DNA of 64,000 bases from positions 29,776 to 93,775 of the forward strand of contig BOJX01000001.1 in the NCBI GenBank assembly GCA_016860685.1, in the 5' to 3' direction. This DNA is from Planctomycetota bacterium (GTDB lineage Bacteria > Planctomycetota > Phycisphaerae > UBA1845). Positions 2,080-50,640 of the stretch are shown piece after piece. Each line of letters starts with the position of its first letter. The first letter of the stretch is position 1. Position numbers and translations under genes: made by a program. The notes under the pieces were generated by a model. The model ran no database searches. It worked only from the letters and a program-made list of their open reading frames with translations, and was not told the DNA's origin.

Positions 2080-2256
2080 GTTGACGGTCCGAAACCCGGT
2101 CGCCGGACCCGTGCTCGGCGCGTGGCCCGACCGAGTGTGCCGCGAGACTTCCGCGGTCCGACGGTCGCTCACCGGGAAGTCACTTCCTGATTCCTGACAT
2201 CGCTGCGCCACGTAAAGGGCAGACGAAGGCAGATCGGAAACCGACGCGCCCCCCTG

Positions 2257-3423
2257 TCAAGGTCCGGTGATGTTCCCTCTGAAGACGCGGTAATCCGGCA
2301 AGTCCACGTCGTTGTCGCCGTTGTTGTCGAAGACGCCGCAGCCGGAGTCCGCATCGCCGCCGGCGCCGGTGAAGCAATTCATAAAGGCGGCGATGTCACG
2401 CAAGTCCACGTCGCCGTCGCGGTCTGCGTCGCCGAATTCCGCTCCCGAGGCGGGCAGCGTCAGGTCCGTGAACACGATGAAGTGGTCTGCCGCCGCCGCG
2501 CTCGTGCCGGACGACAGCGCCGAGCCGCACTTCGCCAGCCCGCCGCCCAGCCCCTCGTCGCGCGAGTCGTACACTTCCGACGGCGGGTCATACCCGGAAA
2601 GCAATGCGCTGACGAGGATGTAATCCAGCCGGCGACCCGAACTGTCTCGCGTCGCGTCGCGCCCGTCCTTCTGACGCGCCTCCAGCGCGGTCACCTCCGG
2701 TCCGGAGGCCGAAGTCAGATAGATGAAAGGGTCGTTGCGGATGCCCTGCGCGTTCAGAATTGTTCGCAGATCATTGCCGAGACGCCAGTTCGTCGGCATT
2801 CCGCCGGGAACCTGCGTAAAAGGGTCCGGCGAGCGCGGCACGCTGTCGATCTCCTCGTTCATGTCCCCGAGGATCACGAAAGCGTCCACGTCCGTGTCCA
2901 GATCGCCGACGGCCTGAGCGGCGCGCAGCGACTCGACCGCGCGCCGAAACTCGTCCGCGTCGGCGGTTCCCGACTTCCAGTGCTCCGTCACAAGCGTCAG
3001 CGGCGCCGCGCCGGGAACGTCCAGCACGACCTCGACGATCAGGCGGGTGATGTCGTTGGCGTTGGAGTCGCCGGAAAGGTTCGCCGACGTGTTGATCGTC
3101 GTGCGCATAAAGGGATGCCGGCTCAGAAAGCCGTTGCGCAACGAGCCGAAAGGATTGCTCGTCGGGACGATCGTGTACGCGAAACCGGCGTCTTCGGCGA
3201 GGTCGGCGAAGTCATCCAGTTCGTCGCCCTCGATCTCCTGGATCGCCACCACGTCGGGACAGATGCGCCCGAGAATCGCCAGCGCCGCATTGTATTCGCT
3301 GCTGCCGCGTACGCCGATCGTCTCGAGGTTCCACGTCGCCACCCGCACGATCGTGTCCGCTGACACCCCCGCGGCGCCGCCTGCCAGGATGAGCACTGCA
3401 ATGATCCCGTCTTGCCTTCGCAC
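2257..3423 (-). CDS. secreted endonuclease/exonuclease/phosphatase (EEP) family protein with C-terminal dockerin-like module
   Basis: N-terminal signal-like segment, then VATWNLE...PDVVAIQEI...LGDMNE, which are EEP-type motifs. The C-terminus is GDADRDGDVDLRDIAAFMNCFTG...NNGDNDVDLPDY, two DxDxDG Ca-loop repeats. Confidence 0.75.
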   Translation of the reverse strand: MRRQDGIIAVLILAGGAAGVSADTIVRVATWNLETIGVRGSSEYNAALAILGRICPDVVAIQEIEGDELDDFADLAEDAGFAYTIVPTSNPFGSLRNGFLSRHPFMRTTINTSANLSGDSNANDITRLIVEVVLDVPGAAPLTLVTEHWKSGTADADEFRRAVESLRAAQAVGDLDTDVDAFVILGDMNEEIDSVPRSPDPFTQVPGGMPTNWRLGNDLRTILNAQGIRNDPFIYLTSASGPEVTALEARQKDGRDATRDSSGRRLDYILVSALLSGYDPPSEVYDSRDEGLGGGLAKCGSALSSGTSAAAADHFIVFTDLTLPASGAEFGDADRDGDVDLRDIAAFMNCFTGAGGDADSGCGVFDNNGDNDVDLPDYRVFRGNITGP

Positions 3424-3525
3424 GATGCTCCCTTCCCCCCGTCGTCCACACTGCTCCCGGTCTCCCGGCGGGCGGGGTCGGCGACGTCGCGCCTTCGGCG
3501 CGGAAGACGCCGAGACCGCGAGGCA

Positions 3526-3555
3526 TTGTAATAAAATCGACGCTGCGGGTAAAAT
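3526..3555 (+). promoter_or_regulatory. candidate sigma70-type promoter (TTGTAA-N18-TAAAAT) for the 3680 gene
   Basis: AT-rich patch in a GC-rich divergent intergenic region. -35-like hexamer at 3526-3531 and -10-like hexamer at 3550-3555. Confidence 0.3.
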
Positions 3556-3679
3556 CCGGCCGACAACACGGCGTCCGTAAAGCCGGGAGGCCGCTCCGAC
3601 TCCGAGTCCTGCGATCTGACGCCCTCATATGCGGCGTTCCGGTTTGACCGGCCGCGCCGACGTTGCATATTCTCCCGAC

Positions 3680-4318
3680 ATGGCGATCCGATTCTTATGC
3701 CCGTCGTGCCGACAGCCGATCGAGACCGACGATGAGTGGGCCGAGAAGCTCGTCGCGTGCCCGTTTTGCCGGGCGACCGTCTGCGCGCCGACGCTGTCCA
3801 CGCTCGGTCCGATCGAAGCGGCGACGGACGTTCCGGGGGCGCGTCCCGCGTGGTCGCCCGACGTCCCGTGGGCGGATGCGGAGGCGACCTTTTCAGGACC
3901 ACCCCGGATCGCGTTCGGTGAGGATCCCGCTCGGAAAGACGCCAACGCGCGTCGGTTGGCGACGATCGCGATCGTTCTGGCCGCACTCAGCATCGCCACG
4001 TTCACGGCGATGTCGCTGATCCTCGCGCCGCATCGCGAGGAGTTGTTCGCATTCACCAAGGAGTTTCAGGACGGCGGCTCGGTCATGCAGGCACAGAAGC
4101 GGATGATGGACGACCTGATGAGCCGCCCCGGCGGTATCCCGAGCTGGTACGTGGCGTCAAGCGTGGCGATGTGGCTGGGGATGTTGTTGTGGTTGCCGGC
4201 GCTGATACTGACGATCCTCGGGATGCGCCGCGCCGCGGCCCGGGGACGCGCCGTCACCGCGATGCTCTTGTCGGTGATCGCTCCGATGATCTGCTGTTGC
4301 ACCTTCATACCGTGGTGA
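3680..4318 (+). CDS. membrane protein with N-terminal zinc-ribbon
   Basis: ORF 3629..4318; ATG at 3680 gives MAIRFLCPSCRQPIETDDEWAEKLVACPFCRATV (CxxC...CxxC). Three hydrophobic helices follow in the C-terminal half. Confidence 0.6.
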   Translation: MAIRFLCPSCRQPIETDDEWAEKLVACPFCRATVCAPTLSTLGPIEAATDVPGARPAWSPDVPWADAEATFSGPPRIAFGEDPARKDANARRLATIAIVLAALSIATFTAMSLILAPHREELFAFTKEFQDGGSVMQAQKRMMDDLMSRPGGIPSWYVASSVAMWLGMLLWLPALILTILGMRRAAARGRAVTAMLLSVIAPMICCCTFIPW

Positions 4319-8693: not shown

Positions 8694-9274
8694 GACAGTT
8701 GCTCCTTTGCTCTGCTCGCGTCCGCCCAGCCGTCCCCGTGCGGGGCGCGCCTTGCCCTGAAACCAGCGAATCCGCAGAAGACGCAGAGGGACGCAGATGT
8801 GCGAAGGCAACGATGCTCGTCTCTGCGAACCGAAGCGCGTCGGTGCGGGGTGTTCCGGATCTCTCAATGCGGAACGCGGATGAAAGTGTAAGAGGGCGGC
8901 TCGCGCCGTCAAGAAACCCGTCGCGGAGCCGACGACGCCGCTCGCCCGGCGCCTCCCGCTCGCAATCGGGTAGGAGGGGGCCTCGCGGCCCCCGTCCTCT
9001 CACTCCACCGGACGTACTCAGCATATCCGGCGGGTTCCTTCAGTGTTGCAATGCGGCATGTCGCGCGGTGAGGTTGAGAAGGCCTTGCCGCGCGAAACAC
9101 TCCTCGGACAGCGCTTCTTTCGCCGCCGGCCTGGCATCCGGTTTCTGTGCGTCGAGTCCGAGTTTTGGCCGTCAGCTTCCTTCAGATTCCGCCTCACGGC
9201 GGACACCCTTGCTCGGCCTGGCGGCTCCGGTCATCACGGCCCGCAGAGGACTTGCACCCCCCAACAGTCACGAC

Positions 9275-9369
9275 ATGCCTGACAAACAAAGGGGGTGCGC
9301 CTCCCTCCGGGAGGCGAATATCATCAGAAAAACCGGCATCACAAAGACCGATAGTTCTTCAACGAGCTG
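9275..9369 (-). repeat. structured ~95-bp repeat, copy A (31 nt downstream of the metallophosphoesterase stop)
   Basis: Aligns with 37675-37772 and 13236-13321. Contains a GC hairpin at 9298-9316, then GAAAAACCGGCATCACAAAGACCGAT and TTCAACGAGCTG. Confidence 0.7.
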
Positions 9370-9400
9370 TTAGGATCCGCGCAGGCAAATCTCGCCGAGA

Positions 9401-11299: not shown

Positions 11300-12997
11300 A
11301 TGAAGACGATGAGGACAATCCTTGCGGTGGCGATTCTGACGAGTTCTTTTCACGGCGCGGCGGCGCAGACGGAGACGCCCGCAATGCCCCCGGAGCAGGA
11401 GGCCAAGGTTTTGATCAAAGCGTACACAACTCGGTATCAGCCGGTGCTGATCGAGGCCAACCGCGCCTGGTGGGAGGCCAGCACCACCGGCTCCAACGAA
11501 GCCTTCGACCGCAAAAAAAAGGCCGACAAGGCGCTCGTCGCCCTGCACAGCGACACGTACCTCGCGGATCGGGTCAACGCGATCCTCAAGAGCGGCGCCG
11601 TGACCGACCCCGTGGAACGCCGGCAGCTTGAAGTCATGCGCCTTCACCTCCTGGCCGCCCACGCCGATCCGGACCTGCAAAACCGCATCGTCGATCTTCA
11701 GTCGGACATCGAGCAAACCTTCAATACCCACCGCAGCGACGTCGGCGGCAAGCTCCTCACCGAGAACGAAGTCCGCGCGATCCTCGCCGAAACGACGGAC
11801 TCGAAGCAGGCGGAGGCGGCGTGGAAGGGATACATGCAGGTCGGGCGCAAAGCCGACGGAAAGCTGCGCGAACTGGTCGCCCTGCGCAACGAACTGGCCC
11901 GCCAGCTCGGCTATCCGGACTTTCACGCGTACAAACTCGCCTCGCAGGAGATCGAGGCCGAGCCTTTCTTCGCCCTTTTTGACGAACTGGACCGCTTGAC
12001 CGCCGCGCCTTTCGCCGAAATCAAGGCCCGCATCGACGCGGCGCGGGCGAAAAAATTCGGCGTCGCGGAATCGGACCTCAGACCGTGGCACTTCGGCGAC
12101 CTCTTCTTTCAGGAGGCGCCGGAAGTCGAAGGCGTGGATCTCGACGCCGTCTACCGCGACGTGGACCTCGTCGCCCTCACCAAGCATTACTATCAGAGCC
12201 TCGGGTTCGACTGCGAGGACATCTTCGCCCGCAGCGACCTCCTCGAAAAAGAGGGCAAAAGCCCGCACGCTTTCGCCACCGATATCGACCGTGAAGGCGA
12301 CATCCGCGTCCTCTGCAACATCAAGCCCAACCTGTACTGGGCCGACACCACGATGCACGAGATCGGACACGCCGTCTACGACAAGTACATTGACCGCACT
12401 CTGCCCTTCACCCTGCGCGAGGCCTCGCACAGCATCACCACCGAAGGCGTCGCGATGATGTTCGGCGCGATCGTCAAGAACGCGGATTTCCTCGCCCGCG
12501 TCCGCAAGCTCAAAGCGGACGAAGCGGCGGCTGCGGGCAAGGCGGCGGCCGACGCCCTTCGGATGGAGAAACTCATGTTCGCCCGCTGGACCCAGGTGAT
12601 GGTGCGGTTCGAACACGGATTGTACACCCAGCCGGATCAGGATCTCGGCAAACTCTGGTGGGATCTCAAGAGGCGCTACCAGCTTCTGAACCCGCCCGAA
12701 TCCACCGACCGCCCGGACTACGCCGCGAAGGTGCATATCCTCACCGAGCCGGTGTATTACCACAGCTACCTGATGGGCGACCTCTTCGCCGCCCAGGTCC
12801 GCAACACGATCGCTCGTCGCGTCCTCGGGCAGGCGTCGCCGGGCGAAACAAGTTTTTTCGGTGAGACGAAAGCCGGCGACTACCTCCGGCGGGAGGTCTT
12901 CGGCCCCGGCAACCTTTACTCGTGGAACGAACTGACGAAACGCGCCACCGGCGAACCGCTCACCGCGAAGTATTTTGCTGAGCAGTTCGTACGTTGA
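11300..12997 (+). CDS. secreted M2-family (angiotensin-converting-enzyme-like) zinc metallopeptidase
   Basis: Signal peptide MKTMRTILAVAILTSSFHGAAA. TMHEIGHAVY...LPFTLREASHSITTEG is an HEXXH motif plus a downstream Glu, spaced as in ACE (HEMGH...LPVALREGANPGFHEA). The N-terminal ANRAWWEASTTG resembles the ACE ASWxYNTN region. Confidence 0.72.
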   Translation: MKTMRTILAVAILTSSFHGAAAQTETPAMPPEQEAKVLIKAYTTRYQPVLIEANRAWWEASTTGSNEAFDRKKKADKALVALHSDTYLADRVNAILKSGAVTDPVERRQLEVMRLHLLAAHADPDLQNRIVDLQSDIEQTFNTHRSDVGGKLLTENEVRAILAETTDSKQAEAAWKGYMQVGRKADGKLRELVALRNELARQLGYPDFHAYKLASQEIEAEPFFALFDELDRLTAAPFAEIKARIDAARAKKFGVAESDLRPWHFGDLFFQEAPEVEGVDLDAVYRDVDLVALTKHYYQSLGFDCEDIFARSDLLEKEGKSPHAFATDIDREGDIRVLCNIKPNLYWADTTMHEIGHAVYDKYIDRTLPFTLREASHSITTEGVAMMFGAIVKNADFLARVRKLKADEAAAAGKAAADALRMEKLMFARWTQVMVRFEHGLYTQPDQDLGKLWWDLKRRYQLLNPPESTDRPDYAAKVHILTEPVYYHSYLMGDLFAAQVRNTIARRVLGQASPGETSFFGETKAGDYLRREVFGPGNLYSWNELTKRATGEPLTAKYFAEQFVR

Positions 12998-13235
12998 ACG
13001 CTGTGACGCGGTTTCGTAACCAAGCCGCACCCGTGAGAGGGCGTGTTTTTCGTGCGTCCTGATTCTTCATCCGACTCCGGCGTGCAGCGTCCTGAGGGTC
13101 TTGAAGATACGGCGCAGCGCGCCCCGACGCCCCGGAGAGGCCTCCGAGGGTGTCTCGCGGAGAGGCGCCCGAGAGGGGCGGGACATCGGATAACGGAAGC
13201 CCCGAAGAACCTGCTGAGCGGCGGACTTGCGTCTT

Positions 13236-13321
13236 TGCAGGGCTTCCTCCGTCCCTCCGAGACGCAAAATTCACCAGGAAAAACCGGCATCACCAGCGCC
13301 GATCATGAGTTCTCAATCTGG
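13236..13321 (-). repeat. structured ~95-bp repeat, copy B (diverged; 120 nt downstream of the serS stop)
   Basis: Shares CGTCCCTCCGAGACG (hairpin), GGAAAAACCGGCATCAC, CCGAT and GTTCTCAATCTGG with copies A and C. Confidence 0.55.
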
Positions 13322-13441: not shown

Positions 13442-14776
13442 TCAGCCGGATCGCTCGATCCGCTCCCGGCCGCCGAGGTACGGGCGCAGAGCTTCCGGGA
13501 TCGTCACCGTTCCGTCCGCGTTCTGATAAAGCTCCAGGACGGGGATCAGGATGCGCGGCGAGGCGATGACCGTGTTGTTGAGCGTATGACAGTAGTGGTT
13601 CTTCTTCGCGCCGTCACGATAGCGCAGCTTCAGGCGGCGCGCCTGGAACTCGTAGAAGCGCGAGGCTGAGTGCGTCTCGCCGTAACCGCCGCGCGAGGGC
13701 ATCCACGTTTCGATGTCGAACTTCTGCGCCTGTCCCTGTCCGAGGTCGCCGGCGCAGACGTTCACCACGCGGTAGGGCAGTTTCAGCGCCGCCAGCACGT
13801 CTTCGGCGTTCTTCAGAATCTCGTGGTGCCAGCGCTTGGACTCTTCGACATCGTTGCGGCAGATCACCACCTGCTCGACCTTTTCAAACAAGTGAATGCG
13901 GTACAGGCCGTGCGTGTCCTTGCCCGCGGCGCCGGCTTCGCGCCGGAAGCACGTGGACTGCGCGACGTACTTTTTCGGCAGGTCGCCCTCGGCGAGGATT
14001 TCTTCGGAGTGATAGGCGGTGACCGGGACTTCCGCGGTTCCGACGAGCGACATCGCGTCGCGTTCGCAGAGGTACGCCTGATCGCGCCCGGCGGGGAAGT
14101 ATCCCGTTCCGACCATTACATCCTCGCGCACCAGGACAGGGACCGTCATCGGAACAAACCCGCGGGCGATCATCATGTCCTGAGCGAGGCGCAGCACCGC
14201 CTGATGCAGCAGCGAACCGTCACCCTTGAGGATGTAATTCCGGCTGCCGGCGAGCTTGACGCCGCGCTCGATGTCGAGAATGCCCAGCTCCGTGCCGAGC
14301 GTGACGTGGTCCTTCGGCTCGAAGTCGAAGCGTCGCACCTCGCCGACGCGCCTGATCTCGACGTTCTCGGTGTCGTCCCTGCCCGGCGGAACCTCGGGGT
14401 CCGCCGGTTGCGGCACGGTGAGCATGAGGCGGTCGAACTCCGCCGCGACGGTCTGCTCCTCGTCTTCGAGCGCCTTGATAAGCGGCTTCAGCCCGGCGAG
14501 TTCCGCCTGCGTCTCGTCGGCGAACGCCTTGATGTCGGCCTCGGTCTTCCCCGCGGATAGCGCCTGCTTGTAGGCGGGAGATTTGGGGTTGCGCAGCAGG
14601 CCCATCAATTCGCCGCCCTCGCGGACCTTGCCGCGCAGACCGTCGAGTTCGACCTGGATTTCGCGGCGGCGGGCGTCCACGGCGATCAGGCGATCCACGT
14701 CGCAGGCGACGCGCTTCGCCGCCGCGGCCTGGCGGATCAGCTCCGGGTTCTCTCGTATGAATTTCGGATCCAGCAT
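13442..14776 (-). CDS. serS: serine--tRNA ligase
   Basis: MLDPKFIRENPE..., an N-terminal coiled-coil arm, and class II core motifs (FRREAG, GLYRIHLFEKVE, TLNNTVIASPR). Confidence 0.93.
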   Translation of the reverse strand: MLDPKFIRENPELIRQAAAAKRVACDVDRLIAVDARRREIQVELDGLRGKVREGGELMGLLRNPKSPAYKQALSAGKTEADIKAFADETQAELAGLKPLIKALEDEEQTVAAEFDRLMLTVPQPADPEVPPGRDDTENVEIRRVGEVRRFDFEPKDHVTLGTELGILDIERGVKLAGSRNYILKGDGSLLHQAVLRLAQDMMIARGFVPMTVPVLVREDVMVGTGYFPAGRDQAYLCERDAMSLVGTAEVPVTAYHSEEILAEGDLPKKYVAQSTCFRREAGAAGKDTHGLYRIHLFEKVEQVVICRNDVEESKRWHHEILKNAEDVLAALKLPYRVVNVCAGDLGQGQAQKFDIETWMPSRGGYGETHSASRFYEFQARRLKLRYRDGAKKNHYCHTLNNTVIASPRILIPVLELYQNADGTVTIPEALRPYLGGRERIERSG

Positions 14777-15823: not shown

Positions 15824-17905
15824 TCAGGGCTGCGGACCGCAGGTGATGCTCGCCTCCACGCCGCACTCGACGAGATCGACGAAGTGCCGCCCGTTCGGAA
15901 TGCGGAAGAACTTCACCTTCGCCCGGCCGTTGTCCTTCACGACGCGCGGGAAGTCCGTCATCGGGTTGTCGTCGAGACGGAACGTGACCGTTGTCCCCGG
16001 ACGCCCGTTGAACAGCTTCGACACCACGGTGATTGAGTTGTCCAGGTGCAGCTTGCAGCCCATCTGGAGGAACTCCAGACCGGTGCAGTCGCCGCCGCTT
16101 TCGCAGGCATCGCCCACGCCGTTCTCGTCTGAGTCCTCCTGACCGGGGTTCGGGACGTCCGGACAATTGTCCACACAATCCGCGACGCCGTCGCCGTCCG
16201 TGTCATCGTCGCTGACGCCGCAGCCGCACGCGCCTTCCTCGGTCTTGTTCGGATCGTCCGGACAGCCGTCGTTGCAGTCGGGCGTCCCGTCGCCGTCCGT
16301 GTCATCATCGCTGACGCCGCAGCCGCACGCGCCTTCCTCGGTCTTGTTCGGATCGTCCGGACAGCCGTCGTTGCAGTCCGGCGTCCCGTCGCCGTCCGTG
16401 TCATCGTCGCTGACGCCGCAGCCGCACGCGCCTTCCTCGGTCTTGTTCGGATCGTCCGGACAGCCGTCGTTGCAGTCGGGCGTGCCGTCGCCGTCCGTGT
16501 CATCATCGCTGACGCCGCAGCCGCACGCGCCTTCCTCGGTCTTGTTCGGATCGTCCGGGCAGCCGTCGTTGCAGTCCGGCGTCCCGTCGCCGTCCGTGTC
16601 CTCATCGCTGACGCCGCAGCCGCACGCGCCTTCCTCGGTCTTGTTCGGATCGTCCGGGCAGCCGTCGTTGCAGTCCGGCGTCCCGTCGCCGTCCGTGTCA
16701 TCATCGCTGACGCCGCAGCCGCACGCGCCTTCCTCGGTCTTGTTCGGATCGTCCGGGCAGCCGTCGTTGCAGTCGGGCGTGCCGTCGCCGTCCGTGTCAT
16801 CATCGCTGACGCCGCAGCCGCACGCGCCTTCCTCGGTCTTGTTCGGATCGTCCGGACAGCCGTCGTTGCAGTCCGGCGTCCCGTCGCCGTCCGTGTCATC
16901 GTCGCTGACGCCGCAGCCGCACGCGCCTTCCTCGGTCTTGTTCGGATCGTCCGGGCAGCCGTCGCAGGCGTCGCCCGCGCCGTCGCCGTCCCGGTCCGAC
17001 TGATCCTTATTGCTCACGTCCGGGCAATTGTCGACGTCGCCGCAGACGCCGTCGCCATCCGCGTCGTTATCCGGATCGTCGGGGCATGCGTCGCAGTCAT
17101 CGATGATCCCGTCGTCATCCCGGTCGCCTTCGATGAAGTCCGACACGCAGTCGCCGTCGCAATCCACGATCGAGTAGTTGAGGTTGCCGGGATTCAGCGT
17201 CGGTGGCGAATTCACGCCGATCGTCTGCCAACCGAACATCTGGAGCGTGTCCCAGTTGTAGGGACCGGGCGACGTGCCCGTAACGACGCCGCCGGCCCAG
17301 AGCAGGGCGTTGGACCCGCAGCGGATGCGGTGCAAGGCGTCCGGCGTGTACGACTCGAAGCGCCCCAGCGCCGTGCCGCCGAGATCGTCGGCGTACTCAT
17401 GTTCGTCGTCCGGAGTCCCGTCGAACTCCTTGTAGCTGACGGCGTCCACCGTGGTGAAATCCGGGAGCGGTCCGTCCAACGTGCCGTCGTTCCCGGCGTC
17501 AAGATCCTGTCCGACGGTGAACGTACCGCCGAAACCGAGCACATACGTGTTCGTGCCGTTTTCGATGTCGGGGTTGAAGTCGAAGATGACGACGTTCGTG
17601 TCCGGGTCCGGCGGCGGCTGGAGCACTGTGCCCGAGTCGCGGATGAGCAGGAGGCCGTTGGCGCCCGTCGAGTACGAGCTGAGATTGAGCGCGACATCGA
17701 TGACGCCGCCGCCGGTCCCGTCGCCCTCAATGACCAGGAACCACCAGCCGCTGAAATTGAAGTTCGGCGCCGCCTGAATCTCGACGAACTCCTGTCCGTT
17801 GTCGGTTGAGGGCGGATCCAGGAGCAACTCGCTTAGGAATCCCTGCCCCAACGCCTGACCCGCCAGCGCGCAAAGCGCCAGTGCTACCCACGCACGTTTC
17901 CGCAT
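15824..17905 (-). CDS. secreted surface protein: lamin-tail-like domain + thrombospondin type-3-like Ca-binding repeats + Cys-framed C-terminal domain
   Basis: ATG 17905 gives the signal peptide MRKRAWVALALCALAGQALG. FLSELLLDPPSTDNGQEFVEI... is LTD-like. Eight copies of the 33-aa unit DGCPDDPNKTEEGACGCGVSDDDTDGDGTPDCN follow, rich in DxDxDG motifs. Confidence 0.8.
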   Translation of the reverse strand: MRKRAWVALALCALAGQALGQGFLSELLLDPPSTDNGQEFVEIQAAPNFNFSGWWFLVIEGDGTGGGVIDVALNLSSYSTGANGLLLIRDSGTVLQPPPDPDTNVVIFDFNPDIENGTNTYVLGFGGTFTVGQDLDAGNDGTLDGPLPDFTTVDAVSYKEFDGTPDDEHEYADDLGGTALGRFESYTPDALHRIRCGSNALLWAGGVVTGTSPGPYNWDTLQMFGWQTIGVNSPPTLNPGNLNYSIVDCDGDCVSDFIEGDRDDDGIIDDCDACPDDPDNDADGDGVCGDVDNCPDVSNKDQSDRDGDGAGDACDGCPDDPNKTEEGACGCGVSDDDTDGDGTPDCNDGCPDDPNKTEEGACGCGVSDDDTDGDGTPDCNDGCPDDPNKTEEGACGCGVSDDDTDGDGTPDCNDGCPDDPNKTEEGACGCGVSDEDTDGDGTPDCNDGCPDDPNKTEEGACGCGVSDDDTDGDGTPDCNDGCPDDPNKTEEGACGCGVSDDDTDGDGTPDCNDGCPDDPNKTEEGACGCGVSDDDTDGDGTPDCNDGCPDDPNKTEEGACGCGVSDDDTDGDGVADCVDNCPDVPNPGQEDSDENGVGDACESGGDCTGLEFLQMGCKLHLDNSITVVSKLFNGRPGTTVTFRLDDNPMTDFPRVVKDNGRAKVKFFRIPNGRHFVDLVECGVEASITCGPQP
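16202..16993. repeat. 8 tandem copies of a 99-bp in-frame repeat
   Basis: Units start at 16202, 16301, 16400, 16499, 16598, 16697, 16796 and 16895. They are near-identical with a few mostly synonymous differences, and the last unit diverges in its final third. Confidence 0.95.
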
Positions 17906-18195
17906 TGATAACCCCCTCGATTGAACTGCCGCGCGCCCCGGAGCGTGACGATCACGCGCCCGCCTGAGTTTGTCCCCTTGCTGTCGTTGGGGCGTAAACC
18001 TCAGGCGCGAAAGCTGACGGAAGATTAACGGTTGACGAAAGCGGCGCAAAGATCGACCGCGTTTCCCCTCCGCCGGCGGCATACGGAATCAAATTAATGT
18101 TTTTTCATGCTCGCAGCGGCTACCCTTCCTTCGAGTTTATCAAGGGGGCGCCGTGGGGTAGCCTCTTTGCAAGCATCGTTGCGAGAGCAGGTTGG

Positions 18196-32081: not shown

Positions 32082-33707
32082 TCACGAGTTGTGAACAAGA
32101 CGCCCGCTTTCCTCGATCCGCTCGCGCAACCGCCGCGCCGACGACTCCGACAACTGCCGCGCCGACAGTCGCCACCGCCAGTTGCCCCGCGCCACGCCCG
32201 GACGGTTCATCCGCGCCTCGCCGCCCAGCCGCAGCACGTCCTGCATCGGCAGCATCACAAGGTCCGCCTCCGACTCCAGCAGTCGGCGAATCAGCGCCTC
32301 ATGAACGCCCGAGCGACCGACTCCCGCATAATGCCTCACGCGCTCGAACGTCGCCTCCGGAAGCGACTCCAGCCAGCCCTTCAACGTGTCGTTGTCGTGC
32401 GTTCCGGTGAACCCCACGCACTTCCGCGGATACCCCTCGGGCCGGTGATACCGCGACCCCGCGCTTTCGTCCCCGAACCCGAATTGAAGCACGCGCATCC
32501 CCGGAAACCCGAAAGCATCCCGCAATTCCGCCGCCCGGCGCGTCAGCACACCCAGATCCTCCGCGACAACCGGAAGCTCTCCGAGCCGGTTGCGCAACGC
32601 GGAAAGCAGTCCCTCTCCCGGCGTCCGGATCCAGCGCCCGCGCCGCGCGTCCCGATCCGCCGCCGGAATCGACCACAGCCGGTGCAGCCCGATGAAATGA
32701 TCGAGGCGCACCGCGTCGAACATCTCCAGCGCTCGCCTGAATCGCGCGACCCACCACGCGAAACCTGTCTCAACGTGCGCCCGCCACCGGTATTGCGGAT
32801 GCCCCCAGCGCTGTCCGCGGCGGTTGAACAAGTCCGCCGGAACCCCCGAGACCGTCCGTGGCAGCCCCTTCCGATCCAGCTCGAACAACTCCGGCGACGC
32901 CCAGGCGTCCGCGCTGTCATGCGCCACGAAAAACGGAATATCCCCGAGCAGCGCCACCCCGCGCCGTGACGCCTCGTCGCGCAACCGCCCCCACTGCTCA
33001 TCCAGAATGAACTGACAGAACCGGGAAAACTCGAACGCCTCCTCCGACTCCGTCAGGCGATCCCGGTCCGCCGGCGTCATTCTTCGCGCAGCCCTCGGCC
33101 ACGACGTCCACACCCGCCCGCCGTGGGCGCGCTTCAGGGCGGCGAACGCCGCGAAGTCGTCCACCCACGGCTGCGACGTGACAAAGTGAACGTAATCCAG
33201 CCGGTCGCACAGCCCGGACGCCCGGAACTCTCGGAACGCTTCCCGCAGGAGCGGCATGCGCATCGCCGCCGCCGCCGCGTAGTCCGACCGATCGGACGAG
33301 TCGCCCCTCGCCGCACTTGCCCCCCAACCCTTCACCGCACCCGCCCGCCGAGCCCGCGCCGCCGCCCGACGCACCGTCGCCGCCCGACGCACCGTCGCCG
33401 CCCGACGCACCGTCGCACGATCCAGCAGACCCTGCTCGACCAGATCGTCCAGGTCGATCATCAGCGGACTGGCGGCGAACACAGAGGATGTCTTGTACGG
33501 ACAACCGCTGCGATCCACCGGATGCACCGGCAGCATCATCCACCAGCGAACCCCCGCGGTATGCAGGTAATCAAGAAACCGCCGCGCGCCGCCCAGATCA
33601 CCGCACCCGAACCCGCCCGGAAGCGACGTCACGTGCAGCAGAACCCCGCAGGCACGCTCAGCCGGCGACGGCGACGGCTTCAGGTATTGGCGCAACATCG
33701 GATTCAT
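32082..33707 (-). CDS. malQ: 4-alpha-glucanotransferase (amylomaltase, GH77)
   Basis: ATG 33707 gives MNPMLRQYL...GVLLHVTSLPGGFGCGDLG... Also DHFIGLHRLW, VVAEDLG and GTHDNDT. Confidence 0.9.
   Translation of the reverse strand: MNPMLRQYLKPSPSPAERACGVLLHVTSLPGGFGCGDLGGARRFLDYLHTAGVRWWMMLPVHPVDRSGCPYKTSSVFAASPLMIDLDDLVEQGLLDRATVRRAATVRRAATVRRAAARARRAGAVKGWGASAARGDSSDRSDYAAAAAMRMPLLREAFREFRASGLCDRLDYVHFVTSQPWVDDFAAFAALKRAHGGRVWTSWPRAARRMTPADRDRLTESEEAFEFSRFCQFILDEQWGRLRDEASRRGVALLGDIPFFVAHDSADAWASPELFELDRKGLPRTVSGVPADLFNRRGQRWGHPQYRWRAHVETGFAWWVARFRRALEMFDAVRLDHFIGLHRLWSIPAADRDARRGRWIRTPGEGLLSALRNRLGELPVVAEDLGVLTRRAAELRDAFGFPGMRVLQFGFGDESAGSRYHRPEGYPRKCVGFTGTHDNDTLKGWLESLPEATFERVRHYAGVGRSGVHEALIRRLLESEADLVMLPMQDVLRLGGEARMNRPGVARGNWRWRLSARQLSESSARRLRERIEESGRLVHNS
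33373..33426. repeat. 3 exact tandem copies of an 18-bp unit inside malQ
   Basis: CGCCCGACGCACCGTCGC x3 on the plus strand, encoding (ATVRRA)3 in malQ. Confidence 0.95.
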
Positions 33708-34103
33708 GCCCGCTACCTTACCGCAAACGACCCGCAAGGGAGCGGGCGCCCCCTACCGAGCCGCGACCGTGAGGGAGCTCGCCGCGCGAGCGCGAATGCG
33801 GGATCGACTCCGCCAGGGAGGATCGGAAGGTTCGCTTGCTGACGCGCGCGGCGCCGATCCGCGACCGTGAGGGAGTGCGAGATTCCGGGCTTTCATGCGG
33901 ATTTGAGACCACGTGTGAGGGTTCGGGACTCGGGTGCTCGGGGATCGTGCGGCGGGCGGCGTGAAAAATCAGGCGCGCCTCAAAAAAATCTCTTGACATC
34001 GGGGGGAGGGGGGCTTGGTAAGCTGGTTCGTTGACGCGTACCGGGCAGGTCTGAGGGGGTCGGCTCGACACGGGTGCGGGGCCGCGGGCTTCTGAACGGA
34101 AGG

Positions 34104-34131
34104 GGCTTCAGGCTTCAGGCTTCAGGCTTCG
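34104..34131. repeat. heptamer microsatellite GGCTTCA x3 + GGCTTCG
   Basis: Read directly, within the 800-bp non-coding region upstream of 34540. Confidence 0.95.
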
Positions 34132-34539
34132 GCGCTGAGGGAACTTTCGGCTTCAGTGCTGAGAGGTTTTGCGTCTCCGCATCAGGGAGGCTTCAAGCCT
34201 CCGAAGGGAGGGTCCGCATGAAGCGGGCCTGGCGGTCGATCCCCGTCGCGGACGCGTCCGTCCGGATCTTGATCCGGAACGGCTTGCGGCCGCGTTCTTC
34301 TGGCGGCGCGATTGTTTCTCGCCCCAACGGGGGCATCGTCCGCGCGCCCCGCCGTCCCCCCGATCCTCCCGAACCCGCGGCGCCAACCGTCCAGGATCGT
34401 CATTCCCGATGCCTTGGCGCGCCGCGGGACGGGGGTTCGCGCGGGCTTCAAGCCCGCTCAGAGGGCGATCCAGGGACGTGCATCGTGATGCCGGAACGTT
34501 TCCGGAACTTTTTCCGCATTTTTTCGTGGAGTTGCGAAC

Positions 34540-35070
34540 ATGTTTCATCATAAGATCGTAACGAAGAATGGCGCTTGGACGGCGATCGCGGGGATCGTCG
34601 TCGTGAGCGCGGGGATGGGGGTTTCCCGCGCGACCGGACCGGAGCCGACGCCGACGATGGTGATGGCGACGGAGGTGACGAGGATGATGACGCCGATGAC
34701 GGGGGCGACGGGGGCCGAGCCGATGCCGATGACGATGCCGATGGCGATGCTCGCGCCGTTCACGTGGACGGGCGGCGGCAGCGACCCGGATTACTGGAAC
34801 GAGACGGCGAACTGGTCCGGGGCGGGCGTGGGCTATCCGGATGACAGCTCGGACGACGCGACGTTTTCCGGCAGTTTTGGCTTCGCCGACTTGGACGCCA
34901 GCCGCACGATTGACGACCTCACCGTGGATGACGGCAGCGGGTCGTACTTCCAATCCGACGGTGAGAACAGCCGGACGCTGACCTGCGACACCGTGGTCAT
35001 CAGCGAAGACACAAGCGGCGATTTCGGCGGCGTTCACGTTACCGGACTGGCCGGCATTGAAACCAACTGA
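34540..35070 (+). CDS. secreted hypothetical protein with Met-rich segment
   Basis: N-terminal hydrophobic segment AWTAIAGIVVVSAGMG. 11 Met in residues 40-70 (TMVMATEVTRMMTPMTGATGAEPMPMTMPMAM). Then FTWTGGGSDPDYWNETANWSG. Confidence 0.65.
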   Translation: MFHHKIVTKNGAWTAIAGIVVVSAGMGVSRATGPEPTPTMVMATEVTRMMTPMTGATGAEPMPMTMPMAMLAPFTWTGGGSDPDYWNETANWSGAGVGYPDDSSDDATFSGSFGFADLDASRTIDDLTVDDGSGSYFQSDGENSRTLTCDTVVISEDTSGDFGGVHVTGLAGIETN

Positions 35071-35158
35071 CGCACAGATTTCCGCTCCGGACGGGTCCGG
35101 TCATCGCTTGAACCGGACGCTTTGACGGTCGGGCAGGTCTGGAATTAAGGAACGAGTC

Positions 35159-36358
35159 ATGAGATGCAGGTCGCGGCACGTGGTGTGCTGGGTCGTGTGC
35201 GTGGCGGGGCTGGCTTGCCACGCTCAGGCGCAGGTCAACCTGCCGCCAGGATTCGAGATCGTCGAGTTCGCGGAGAACGACTACGGCATAGCCAACGTGG
35301 ATCTCAACGACTGTGGGCAGGTTGCTTATTCGCAATGGCAGGCATCCAACGGTCACAGCGAGATCTTCGTCTATGACAATGGACGCCTCTTCAGAATCAC
35401 CCAGGGAGACGATCGTAATGTCCATCCTGAAATGAACAACGCAGGGCAGATTATCTGGGGAAGAGGCATTGATCGTAGTTCGGTTACGCAACTTGTGTTA
35501 TACAGTCACGGCCAGGAAACCGTCATTGACGAGAACGTCGACAGCTTCAATGGCTGGTCTATCAACAATGTTGGAAACATTGTGTGGTCGAGAAGCATAA
35601 GTTTGCGCTGCCCTCGGCAGGAGAATCTATTCCAATGGGACGGATCAACGGTGACCCAACTCACGTTCGACGCCGACCGCAGCAATGTGCAACCCAGCCT
35701 CAACGACCATGGTGAATTTGCATGGCCTTATTCGAATTTCTGCGACAATCCGTGGAGTGCGGAGGTTCTCGTTAGATATGCAGATCGGCAGATCACGCTG
35801 CCCTCTCCATACACCCAGAATCAAGCAACGGAGATTACCAACTCCGGTTTCGTGACCTGGCTCTCCACATCCCGGTTAATGCTTTGGACAGGGTCTGAAA
35901 GCAGGCTATTGCTGGAAAGAAGCGGGCGGGCGGCCTTAAACGAGTGGCTTCGGCTGTACGTGACCATTTTCGACTTCGAGAAGACCAGTTGGAACCCGTG
36001 GGTGCTCGATGTAACGGACGAGGGCATGAACATGTTCATGCTCAGGGACAGTGATTACTGGTTTTCCGATGGCTCCGTCAATGAGTGGGGAGAAATCGCG
36101 ACCTCCTGGTCCGAGGATCCTCCAAACAGTCGAAACCGCGGCGCCGTGATGTATCTGCGACGCATCCGCACCGGCGACAGCGAGTTTGACGGCGACATTG
36201 ATCTGCGCGACCACAAGCGGTTGGTTCGAGCGATGACCGGACCCGTCCGGACGGAAGGTCTGTGCGAAGATCGTTTTCTGGACATCAATCACGACGGCGA
36301 TCTGGACCTGGACGACTACGCCAGGCTCCAGAACGCCTTTACCGGGGCGACGCCGTAA
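35159..36358 (+). CDS. secreted repeat protein (six or more N-x-x-G-x-hydrophobic-x-W repeats, propeller-like) with C-terminal dockerin-like module
   Basis: Signal peptide ...VVCVAGLACHAQA. Repeats NDCGQVAYSQW, NNAGQIIWGRG, NNVGNIVWSRS, NDHGEFAWPYS, TNSGFVTWLST, NEWGEIATSWS. C-terminus GDSEFDGDIDLRDHKRLVRAMTGP...DINHDGDLDLDDYARLQNAFTG. GC is visibly lower; a 60-nt sample at 35401-35460 is 52%. Confidence 0.7.
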   Translation: MRCRSRHVVCWVVCVAGLACHAQAQVNLPPGFEIVEFAENDYGIANVDLNDCGQVAYSQWQASNGHSEIFVYDNGRLFRITQGDDRNVHPEMNNAGQIIWGRGIDRSSVTQLVLYSHGQETVIDENVDSFNGWSINNVGNIVWSRSISLRCPRQENLFQWDGSTVTQLTFDADRSNVQPSLNDHGEFAWPYSNFCDNPWSAEVLVRYADRQITLPSPYTQNQATEITNSGFVTWLSTSRLMLWTGSESRLLLERSGRAALNEWLRLYVTIFDFEKTSWNPWVLDVTDEGMNMFMLRDSDYWFSDGSVNEWGEIATSWSEDPPNSRNRGAVMYLRRIRTGDSEFDGDIDLRDHKRLVRAMTGPVRTEGLCEDRFLDINHDGDLDLDDYARLQNAFTGATP

Positions 36359-36382
36359 GTCGCTCCGAAGGAGCATTCAACC

Positions 36383-37393
36383 ATGAGGAACATTCTTGTG
36401 ATTCTGATCGCGGTGCTGACCTGCGCCGCGTGCGCCGGTGAACCGGCGTTCGCCCAACTGACGCAAACCACGTGGCAGGGTGATGTGAATACGAATTGGT
36501 TTGAAGACGACAACTGGTCGGGCAGCGTCGTGCCCGACGACACATTCGAGGTGGTCATTCCCCACAACCCCACAGGCGGGAGTGTTTGGCCTGTCATCGA
36601 CAACAGCGAGGTGGATGCCGAGGCCGGCAAGCTCACGATGACGGTGAGCGGCGGCACGCGGGCGAAGCTGACGATCCAGTCGGGGTCGGTGCTCATTCTC
36701 GGCAACGGCGGAACCTTGACCTCCACCGTGGACGGCGACCTCGTCCTCGGCGACGGCTCGCTGCCTTACGGTAGTCTGAAGATCAACGGCACGCACACCA
36801 TCACCGGGAAGGGCGGGACGATCGAGCTGAAGGAGAAATCCTCGATCATTCCGCTCAACGACACCGACGACCTACTGATCCTCACGGGCGACAGCGGATG
36901 CACCGGGTATCCCGACGACCGCGCGTGCAGCCTGACGGTCTTCGGCATCGGCTACATCGCGGTGCGCCTGGACAACCGGGCGTTCGTCGTCGGGAAGGAC
37001 GCCGGAGGAACGCCGCTGAAGCTCGACGGTTACGACATGACCGGAACCAGCGTGGGCTGGTGGATCGCGGAGAACGGCGGGTCGATCGCCATCGGGACGG
37101 ACATCACCGGCGCCTGCACCTGGCTGACCAAGGCGAACGCCCCCGGCTCCTTTCTGCTGGGTCATACGGACGTGGGCGACGGGTGCGTGGCCGCGACCGG
37201 CGAGGTGATCCTCAAGTCCGGGTTGCTGAGCGTGCTCGACGGTTCGCGGTTCTGCACGTCGGGCAAGCTGACGTGGAAGTCGGTGGACGTGAACGGCACG
37301 CCGTCACAGGCGCAGATCGTCACCACCGGCGCCGCCACGGCGACCTTCGGCCTGGGCAGCGCGAGCTCCTGCACGGCGTGCAACGTCGAGTGA
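36383..37393 (+). CDS. secreted hypothetical protein, beta-helix-like
   Basis: Signal peptide MRNILVILIAVLTCAACAGEPAFA. TTWQGDVNTNWFEDDNWSG parallels the motif in the 34540 protein. The rest of the sequence is rich in Gly, Thr and Ser. Confidence 0.7.
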   Translation: MRNILVILIAVLTCAACAGEPAFAQLTQTTWQGDVNTNWFEDDNWSGSVVPDDTFEVVIPHNPTGGSVWPVIDNSEVDAEAGKLTMTVSGGTRAKLTIQSGSVLILGNGGTLTSTVDGDLVLGDGSLPYGSLKINGTHTITGKGGTIELKEKSSIIPLNDTDDLLILTGDSGCTGYPDDRACSLTVFGIGYIAVRLDNRAFVVGKDAGGTPLKLDGYDMTGTSVGWWIAENGGSIAIGTDITGACTWLTKANAPGSFLLGHTDVGDGCVAATGEVILKSGLLSVLDGSRFCTSGKLTWKSVDVNGTPSQAQIVTTGAATATFGLGSASSCTACNVE

Positions 37394-37537
37394 GGGCGGG
37401 GGTCGAGGGGGGTCAGGACAAGGACAAGGCGCAGACGGAGCGAGGCTCCTGCGCGCTGGCCTCGGCGGGGCAAGCACCTGCTCCTGCTCGACGGACTGCC
37501 CGTAAGGCGGAGCGATGGACCTCCCGAGACTGAACTT

Positions 37538-37573
37538 CCGGGACCACGGAAGGACCGCCTTTCGTGGTCCCGG
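37538..37573 (+). terminator. hairpin downstream of the 36383 gene
   Basis: Perfect 11-bp stem CCGGGACCACG / CGTGGTCCCGG with a 14-nt loop. It is followed by a moderately T-rich stretch, not a clean U-tract. Confidence 0.35.
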
Positions 37574-37674
37574 GATGGTCTTCTGGTTTCCGCCGACCGA
37601 CCGCACGCAACCGCGCCCCTCCCCCGGACGCCGATGACGGCGGGCAATGCCCGCCCCACGCGCTCCAGGCATAG

Positions 37675-37772
37675 CAGCCCGTTGAAAAAGGGGTGCGCGT
37701 CCCTTCGGGACGCGAATTTCATCGGGAAAAACCGGCGTCACAAAGACCGATCCCGGGTTCTTCAACGGGCTG
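37675..37772 (-). mobile_element. structured repeat copy C, MITE-like (12-bp terminal inverted repeats, ATAG on both flanks); 63 nt downstream of the tyrA stop
   Basis: CAGCCCGTTGAA (37675-37686) is the exact reverse complement of TTCAACGGGCTG (37761-37772). ATAG occurs at 37671-37674 and 37773-37776. Internal hairpin at 37696-37714. Confidence 0.55.
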
Positions 37773-37835
37773 ATAGGCAAAGGACTCGAAGATGAGCGAT
37801 CCGGGGCAAGCTGCCGCGGAGCAACGAAGCAGGCG

Positions 37836-50574: not shown

Positions 50575-50640
50575 TCGAGTCTTCTTTTTCGTGAAAAACG
50601 GGGCGGACCACCCCTCGAAAAAGAACGGGCTGAACCCCGG
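50575..50640 (-). repeat. possible fourth, strongly diverged copy of the structured repeat (74 nt downstream of the sppA stop)
   Basis: Shares GAAAAAC(C)GG and AACGGGCTGA blocks in the same order and orientation as copies A-C. Confidence 0.3.

Follow-up and report, generated by a model that had tools for sequence, protein, structure and literature searches.

Within the window, the stretch of 64,000 nucleotides analysed here, a structured repeat of about 98 bp recurs, each time a short distance beyond the stop codon of a minus-strand gene. The locus therefore raises the question of whether such a repeat stands at gene ends because it serves the genes there, as a portable terminator, a 3′-UTR module or a small RNA, or because it is a mobile element for which the ends of genes are a favourable target. 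An earlier note on this DNA left these readings side by side. We have addressed the question by defining the members of the family, their ends and flanks, their relatives and the structure of their interior.

Members and distribution of the family

Copies A, B and C of the window belong to one repeat family according to an nhmmer search with a profile built from copies in other genomes together with copy C. Copy C is matched over its full length (37669–37779, plus strand, profile positions 4–114, E = 3.7e-35), copy A at 9288–9376 (plus strand, positions 21–114, E = 1.8e-23) and copy B at 13250–13320 (plus strand, positions 33–103, E = 2.6e-13), and the ordered blocks and A-run indels that they were said to share are present on reading of the sequences. 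The 16-mer GAAAAACCGGCRTCAC occurs exactly at 9327, 13278 and 37726, on the plus strand each time; with up to three mismatches it has five matches in the window against 1.2 expected, a number reached in none of 100 shuffles. A repeat search of the window also picked out the B/C and A/B/C cores, as families D15 and D17. No reading frame is kept in common across the 98 bp, owing to indels in the A-run and elsewhere, so the family is non-coding, as the earlier note had argued. Its fourth candidate, D (50575–50640), had been offered as a diverged copy and is rejected, since the profile is silent at this position even when the search is confined to a 310-nt stretch and relaxed to E ≤ 1000.

In a scan of one genome per species (185,579 species) with a 24-nt core pattern, true elements came to light in just two genomes, the Phycisphaerae MAGs MAG_25 (JABWBH01) and Bin_14R (JAJVHU01); the pattern also gave many chance matches within genes of unrelated bacteria. 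The profile finds 34 copies in 28 loci of these two MAGs, including six overlooked by the pattern, and the copy count in relatives that had been proposed as a check thus stands at 37 for the window and the two related MAGs together. About ten further copies of the family were found in WBZY01 contigs when metagenomes were scanned with the left end of the element. The copies are scattered among at least 28 unrelated loci, stop at the same sharp boundaries and share no flanks from locus to locus save in true orthologues. A right flank common to three loci of Bin_14R was considered as part of a longer repeat or insertion sequence (IS) and rejected, as the shared stretch stops at contig ends; it is probably an assembly overlap, with a next ORF that is not a transposase.

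Over 8 kb the window shares 92.5% identity with MAG_25, and over 2.1 kb it shares 89% with Bin_14R, which places the family in a group of genus rank within the uncultured Phycisphaerae. Logan contigs L094–L096, which encode GIK15063.1, a protein of the 'BroJett003' Planctomycetota MAG, match the window at 100% identity. These contigs, from the window's own genome, begin at window position 9284, inside copy A, as is expected because repeats break assemblies. A literature search with the terminal sequence gave no description of the repeat family, the matches being unrelated primers only. The ~98-bp family seems not to have been described before, and is an ordinary kind of element.

Ends, target site and related elements

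Copy C is the sole intact copy in the window and spans 98 bp at 37675..37772 on the plus strand, in the orientation of the family profile (the 'gene sense' used previously is the minus strand). It begins CAGCCCGTTGAA and finishes TTCAACGGGCTG, which form a 12-bp inverted repeat (37675–37686 with 37761–37772), or one of 15 pairs on the minus strand with a single G-U pair admitted. The left terminal inverted repeat, CAGCCCGTTGAAAAAGGG, lies at 37675..37692 (plus strand) and pairs with 37761–37772, extended to 37758–37772; the right one, GGGTTCTTCAACGGGCTG, lies at 37755..37772 (plus strand). Identical ATAG tetramers flank the element at 37671..37674 and 37773..37776. The earlier note had missed both the inverted repeat and these direct repeats. 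The interior holds a GC hairpin of 8 bp at 37696..37714 (CGCGTCCC, loop TTC, GGGACGCG) and a second small stem-loop. In the family as a whole, full elements end in terminal inverted repeats of 12–18 bp, CAGCCCGTTGAAAAAGGG...TTCTTCAACGGGCTG, and the terminal helix is 88.4% paired over 33 copies.

The other two copies are less complete. Copy A (9277..9369, plus strand) retains its right end, its left inverted repeat having decayed or been lost; its GC hairpin lies at 9298..9316 (CGCCTCCC, loop TCC, GGGAGGCG), and its right end abuts a TTAG target at 9370..9373, the same TTAG being found in the sister genomes (L090/L091/L097). Copy B (13250..13320, plus strand) is decayed at both ends and lies between convergent genes, identified from Pfam as those of an M2/M3-type peptidase (11300–12997, plus strand) and of seryl-tRNA synthetase, serS (13442–14776, minus strand).

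The tetramers before CAG... and after ...CTG are mostly of the form NTAR (ATAG, TTAG, CTAA, GTAG, CTAG, TTAA), and mostly YTAG or YTAA. Duplication of the target was tested on 29 independent full-length copies by permuting the right flanks among copies 20,000 times. Left and right tetramers agree at 79 of 116 positions against 58.3 ± 3.7 in the permutations, none of which reached 79. Agreement at the two variable positions of the tetramer is found in 20/29 copies (0 of 20,000 permutations) and 19/29 copies (p = 0.0002). No duplication signal is seen in registers of 2, 3, 5 or 6 nt, and 8 nt is borderline (p = 0.05); these lengths were rejected, none being significant in the permutation test, and the absence of a 2-bp signal speaks against an IS630-type duplication of TA. 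The duplications are perfect in only 3 of the 29 copies, with at least three of the four positions matching in 19. Such imperfection fits old insertions, yet it weakens each single case.

The site of copy A bears on the same point from one side. The sister genomes become alignable (95.5% identity) at 9370, the base directly after copy A, and they have a single bare TTAG where the copy ends. The left side of the site is rearranged, so that the junction is one-sided and does not give a clean filled/empty pair. Copy C is occupied at the orthologous site in MAG_25 (L065) and in L100, and no empty site for B or C was found, both being occupied in every relative examined. Two loci reached through tyrA homologues, L098 and L099, were considered as empty C sites and set aside, because, although they lack C, their homology is lost before the site. 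The ends that go with a DDE transposase fused to tyrA in L098 are unrelated. Some 75 nt from copy A there is a fragment of a group II intron; no such intron was found next to other copies in the 32 related loci searched with Rfam.

The same ends are found on a second element of ~100 bp, with ten copies in Ga0209018 contigs, which reads CAGCCCGTTGAAAAAGGG...TTTTCTTCAACGGGCTG and has an unrelated interior. Its duplications are perfect in 7 of the 10 copies (CTAG four times, TTAG twice, GTAG once). The metagenome scan also gave elements of other lengths, some shorter and some longer, that share this left end. As this sister family retains the ends and exchanges the whole interior, the ends are the conserved functional part. 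From reading of the sequences, the interior of the Ga0209018 element is also rich in hairpins.

One pattern match, in locus L142, is the end of a 1.69-kb IS. Its transposase ORF of 512 aa starts 60 nt inside the IS end and has the domains DUF772 and DDE_Tnp_1_6; it scores 340.8 bits against the IS1182-family model NF033551 of NCBIfam (cutoff 270). The ends of this IS are CAGCCCGTTGAAAAAGGG and, just past the ORF, an inverted end that is CAGGGTGTTGAAAAAGGC reverse-complemented. Transposases homologous to this one are very common in metagenomes. We inspected related ISs at six loci (L158–L163), comprising five distinct copies, and all five have ends of the form CAG(C/G)C(T/C)GTTGAAAAAGGG ... CCCTTTTTCAAC(A/G)GGCTG. 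The first 18 nt of the ~98-bp repeat match 18/18 at the left end of the L142 element and at the right end (reverse-complemented) in L161/L162, and 16–17/18 at the other ends of these elements and in L158. The boundary of the IS is fixed by L161 and L162, which encode an identical protein and differ immediately outside the ends. The 4-bp flanks of the related ISs are GTTC/GTTC and GAGC/GAGC, with two others agreeing at three of four positions. They sit at non-TA tetramers within palindromes (loops), not at NTAR, so the choice of target differs from that of the repeats studied here.

The L142 and L158–L163 elements come from metagenomic organisms other than the Phycisphaerae lineage. A search for solo ends in ~290 kb of Phycisphaerae-group DNA found no full-length element with these ends, neither solo ends nor ends paired at 0.8–4 kb turned up in the Phycisphaerae loci or in most metagenome matches, and in a tblastn search with the IS1182 transposase against all loci gathered, only the IS loci themselves matched. 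As the matching ISs were found only in other organisms, we infer the transposase partner in the Phycisphaerae lineage.

MITEs are non-coding, non-autonomous DNA transposons. The repeats are below ~300 bp and without coding capacity, and they have inverted repeats, a target duplication and dispersed copies, as expected of such elements; ends like those of transposase-encoding IS1182 elements, together with the 4-bp duplication, are what marks an IS1182 derivative. Since the second family and the IS1182-family ISs with 4-bp duplications share the ends, we can assign the repeats with considerable confidence to an IS1182-type MITE of ~98 bp with a 4-bp NTAR duplication, resident in uncultured Phycisphaerae (Planctomycetota). 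The MITE was one of the readings proposed at the outset, and the terminal inverted repeats, the duplication, the sister family and the ISs bear it out.

Gene context, interior structure and alternatives

The position of the copies with respect to genes was the starting point of the question. Pfam agrees with the neighbouring genes as first described (metallophosphoesterase, serS, chorismate mutase/prephenate dehydrogenase and S49 peptidase), and the distances from the stop codons, 31, about 120 and 63 nt for A, B and C, are correct. A position after a minus-strand gene holds but is half the picture, since B and C lie between convergent genes and are thus also downstream of a plus-strand gene. 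For the family, context was taken from a simple codon-bias gene caller, the Pfam check covering the window genes only, and on this basis the 28 classifiable copies lie in 13 convergent, 9 tandem and 6 divergent intergenic regions. Convergent regions are enriched about 2-fold (13 against 6–7 expected; p = 0.003 by region number, 0.04 by length). In tandem regions both orientations occur (7 vs 3, p = 0.34); the single orientation described before is true of the window, where all copies are on the plus strand, but not of the family.

Stop codons are found within the target itself. Of the 37 copies, 6 adjoin a long, high-scoring ORF whose stop codon makes up the final 3 nt of the duplication, and site A is a seventh case of a stop within the target, the TTAG of the sister genomes holding the TAG stop of a convergent 374-aa gene (L090 gene 2919–4043). 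At 65.6% G+C, the window contains just 44 YTAR sites in its 64 kb. The preference for gene ends therefore stands as far as the convergent excess and the stops in the target go, with the qualification that tandem and divergent regions are also occupied. The association with gene ends reflects NTAR target choice and tolerance of insertion, and not a fixed rule of orientation or a 3′-UTR function.

The way in which such a distribution may have arisen can be outlined as follows. An IS1182-family DDE transposase, supplied in trans, would bind both ends, cut out or copy the element and insert it at staggered cuts 4 bp apart, the repair of which would produce the 4-bp duplication. Tetramers containing TA would be rare in a genome of 66% G+C, and TAA and TAG stops with the DNA just past them may be among the few tolerated targets, so that copies would accumulate near gene ends and above all between convergent genes. 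An insertion that falls in a stop codon would duplicate it and so leave the gene with a stop. The three window copies are presumably old and decaying in a roughly neutral manner, one being common to relatives (92% identity) and two truncated, with the internal GC hairpin as a likely cargo of the MITE lineage. An unlikely extension of this scheme is that the lineage has been co-opted as a portable 3′-end module, which would land on stops, regenerate them and, through its hairpin, pause or end transcription or protect the 3′ end of the mRNA; the hairpin might then also attract terminator-seeking (class C) group II introns. The terminators of Planctomycetota are poorly known.

Somewhat less probable again, and in our judgement quite improbable, is that the copies are first of all a functional RNA module, a portable terminator or 3′-UTR stabiliser or a multi-copy sRNA, kept by selection and with mobility secondary or absent. 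Part of its support is structural. Copy C folds at −47 to −51 kcal/mol on either strand (z = −4.1 to −4.5) into a three-way junction. Over the 34-copy alignment this structure is 90.7% paired, but 89.0% with shuffled partners, so that most of the pairing comes from plain conservation; pairs changed on both sides number 4 against 3.9 in shuffles, and double-change cells 17 against 9.5 ± 2.2; as the copies are related, the shuffle control is a lenient one. The sole solid compensatory swap is in the GC hairpin, which is 95.8% paired over 33 copies. It was noticed originally between copy A (CGCCTCCC/GGGAGGCG) and copy C (CGCGTCCC/GGGACGCG) and is present there; in the family 22 copies have C:G at this pair and 8 have G:C. 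The covariation that had been sought is thus one good swap on a background that is weak overall. The minus-strand fold uses fixed G-U pairs that are A-C mismatches on the plus strand (three fixed positions), as would suit an RNA read from that strand, but without the fixed positions the asymmetry is 48 vs 34 and not significant, in a count that is biased because the structure was chosen from the minus-strand fold.

The case for a terminator in particular starts from the hairpin being followed, in all three window copies, by CACCCC(C)TTT when read in the direction of the closest upstream gene. With a GC-rich stem and a T-run within 0–2 nt as the criterion, neither strand of A or C yielded an intrinsic terminator call at the GC hairpin, because the T-run starts 6–7 nt after the stem; in copy B only a weak 6-pair inner stem was called. 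No Rfam family covers the element, whether in the window at gathering thresholds, in the copies at E ≤ 10 or in 32 related loci, and the only likeness found with Rfam 15 at E ≤ 10 is that of a 14-nt hairpin to Acido-Lenti-1 (14 bits against a cutoff of 37). The convergent enrichment is what a 3′-end module would show, but the six copies in divergent regions are on the promoter side, and the mixed orientations in tandem regions also count against it.

Comparison of orthologous copies is a further argument against selection on an RNA. Between copy C and its MAG_25 orthologue 10 of 98 positions differ, compared with 10 of 176 in the surrounding intergenic DNA. The orthologue of copy B in L090/L091/L097 has an intact right inverted repeat, a different left truncation and a 237-bp indel, and copy B has diverged from its orthologues more than its flanks have. 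The divergence of orthologous copies thus equals or exceeds that of their flanks, with no sign of constraint; A and B, moreover, lack intact ends (the left in A, both in B), and in the sister family it is the interior that is wholly replaced and the ends that are kept. The terminator and sRNA readings of the earlier note consequently find no positive support in T-run, Rfam, covariation or divergence. The interior is not a plain palindrome, as it consists of two separate hairpins, one with the compensatory swap, and this leaves room for some added role, which may be at the level of RNA or of DNA.

A different kind of mobile repeat, a REP/BIME palindrome spread by a RAYT (IS200/IS605-like, single-strand) transposase, would explain an element that is palindromic, extragenic, multi-copy and often flanked by NTAG, the tetramer then being a fixed recognition tag; NTAG is similar to the GTAG tag attributed to many REPs (PMC3733652). 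We regard this as very unlikely, since the tetramers vary among copies and change together on the two sides of any one copy, as duplicated targets do and a fixed tag would not, and since the length of the element is ~98 bp rather than 20–40 bp and its ends match those of DDE-type IS1182 elements. Finally, an immobile, decaying repeat (from local duplication or recombination) or chance similarity would suit the truncation of A and B, the imperfection of most duplications and the lack of a transposase found in the lineage, but is scarcely credible in the face of profile E-values of 1e-13 to 1e-35, copies in 28 or more unrelated loci that agree sharply in their boundaries and share no flanks, statistically supported 4-bp duplications, and a sister family and ISs with identical ends.

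Comparison with known systems

The IS1182-type MITE has a close counterpart in MITEPye1 of Paracoccus yeei, whose inverted repeats of 18 bp are IS1182-like and whose direct repeats measure 4 bp (PMC11578231). Each of the two is a small intergenic element without coding capacity, with ~18-bp IS1182-like ends and 4-bp repeats, and each is presumed to be mobilised in trans (PMC11578231). They differ in host, Alphaproteobacteria for MITEPye1 and Planctomycetota/Phycisphaerae here, the two systems being compared by description. They differ also in number, with 1–3 copies of MITEPye1 per P. yeei chromosome against at least 25 of the Phycisphaerae MITE in one MAG, and a clear NTAR target preference is a feature of the latter. 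The IS1182-family ISs themselves (NF033551) share ends CAG(C/G)C(C/T)GTTGAAAAAGGG, as in L142 and L158–L163, and 4-bp duplications with the MITE, but are ~1.7 kb long with a transposase gene, whereas the MITE has 98 bp and no transposase.

A 4-bp duplication at a YTAR target is the hallmark of IS5 of E. coli (PMC5009759), and the (C/T)TA(A/G) duplication is thus common to IS5 and the Phycisphaerae MITE. In contrast, the transposase tied to MITE-type ends, that of L142, scores as IS1182 (340.8) and is sub-threshold for the IS5 model (78.5 bits, below the cutoff of 140). The IS1182 and IS5 transposases are related. The Correia (NEMIS) repeats of Neisseria, ERIC of enterobacteria and RUP of Streptococcus pneumoniae are intergenic, MITE-like repeats of 100–150 bp with long hairpins, as here; they are often co-transcribed with their neighbours, and termination or mRNA processing is affected by some of them. 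In Correia and RUP the duplication is TA (2 bp) and the link is to IS630-type elements, unlike in the Phycisphaerae MITE, to which none of the three is known to have sequence similarity.

A conspicuous structured repeat of bioreactor and environmental Phycisphaerae is thereby explained without a new class of RNA, which averts a false annotation as ncRNA. The family is also of practical consequence for these genomes, because it breaks assemblies, contigs of the window's genome and of a related MAG stopping inside copies, and because its copies mark points of rearrangement such as the synteny break at copy A. In a GC-rich genome, the choice of NTAR targets can place repeats beside stop codons without any function there, and so mimic a 3′-UTR element. 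The occurrence of one pair of IS1182-type ends on several unrelated interiors provides a handle for cataloguing the MITEs that are mobilised by IS1182 elements.

Sequence surrounding the three copies of the element in the window

The interval between the GAPDH gene (8693-7669) and copy A of the miniature inverted-repeat transposon (MITE; 9277-9369) holds a group II intron fragment on the minus strand, at 8988-9203 within a surrounding region of 8694-9276. It scores 52.5 bits with the Rfam model group-II-D1D4-3 (RF02001), whose cutoff is 32. As there is neither a reverse-transcriptase ORF nor a match to domain 5/6, and the upstream sequence is too short for a full domain 1, the fragment is a remnant. 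The same region, 8694-9276, marks a break in synteny between the window and its sister genomes.

Copy B (13250-13320) is adjoined by a 237-bp stretch (13020-13256) that is missing in the three sister genomes L090, L091 and L097, in which the stop codon of the peptidase gene directly abuts what remains of the copy B element. Near copy C (37675-37772), a 3.7-kb segment of three genes (33880-37595), whose right edge is 80 nt from the element, is common to the window and the MAG_25 locus (L065) and absent from the related contig L100.

Two ORFs of the window contain tandem repeats. A 99-bp unit (33 codons) is repeated ~9-11 times at 16049-17140, with 92-94% identity between units in the middle of the array, inside a minus-strand ORF of 752 residues (15824-18082); this ORF appears to encode a repeat-domain protein. 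In the ORF 32082-33737, 18-bp units (CGCCGCCCGACGCACCGT) form a short tandem array at 33342-33413, which gives a 6-residue protein repeat.

RNA motifs and assembly features at related loci

The Acido-Lenti-1 RNA motif (RF01687) recurs across related Phycisphaerae MAGs at 38-48 bits, where the cutoff is 37 (L001 3234-3280, L020 2781-2827, L040 6789-6835, L043 6506-6552 and L098 1474-1520), and in L040 it starts 3 nt beyond a MITE copy. The window has none.

In a single related metagenome contig, L098, the tyrA orthologue is called as fused to a DDE_Tnp_1 transposase (2161-3720), with an IS110-type transposase fragment immediately upstream. Either an IS has disrupted the gene or the contig is chimeric through misassembly. 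Three loci of a second Phycisphaerae MAG, Bin_14R (L022 1-179, L029 5547-5678 and L020 3325-3500), are identical for 30-90 nt past the right end of the element. Since two of the three lie at contig ends, the common flank probably arose where the assembly overlaps at a repeat, and does not belong to a larger element.

A second MITE family and the insertion sites of IS1182-family elements

A second MITE family of ~100 bp, found on Ga0209018 contigs (L104, L120, L122, L126, L135, L136, L141, L144, L153 and L154), has the same ends as the window element and an unrelated, hairpin-rich interior. Most copies are flanked by perfect CTAG, TTAG or GTAG target-site duplications, and the family therefore looks younger and recently active.

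The IS1182-family insertion sequences with ends matching the MITE (L142, L158, L161, L162 and L163) occupy the loops of palindromic motifs that resemble one another, for example GTCTCACAAAC...TTTGTGAGAC and GGTTCCTRTAAC...TTACAGGAACC. Their position in palindrome loops suggests a preference of these insertion sequences for hairpin or REP-like targets.
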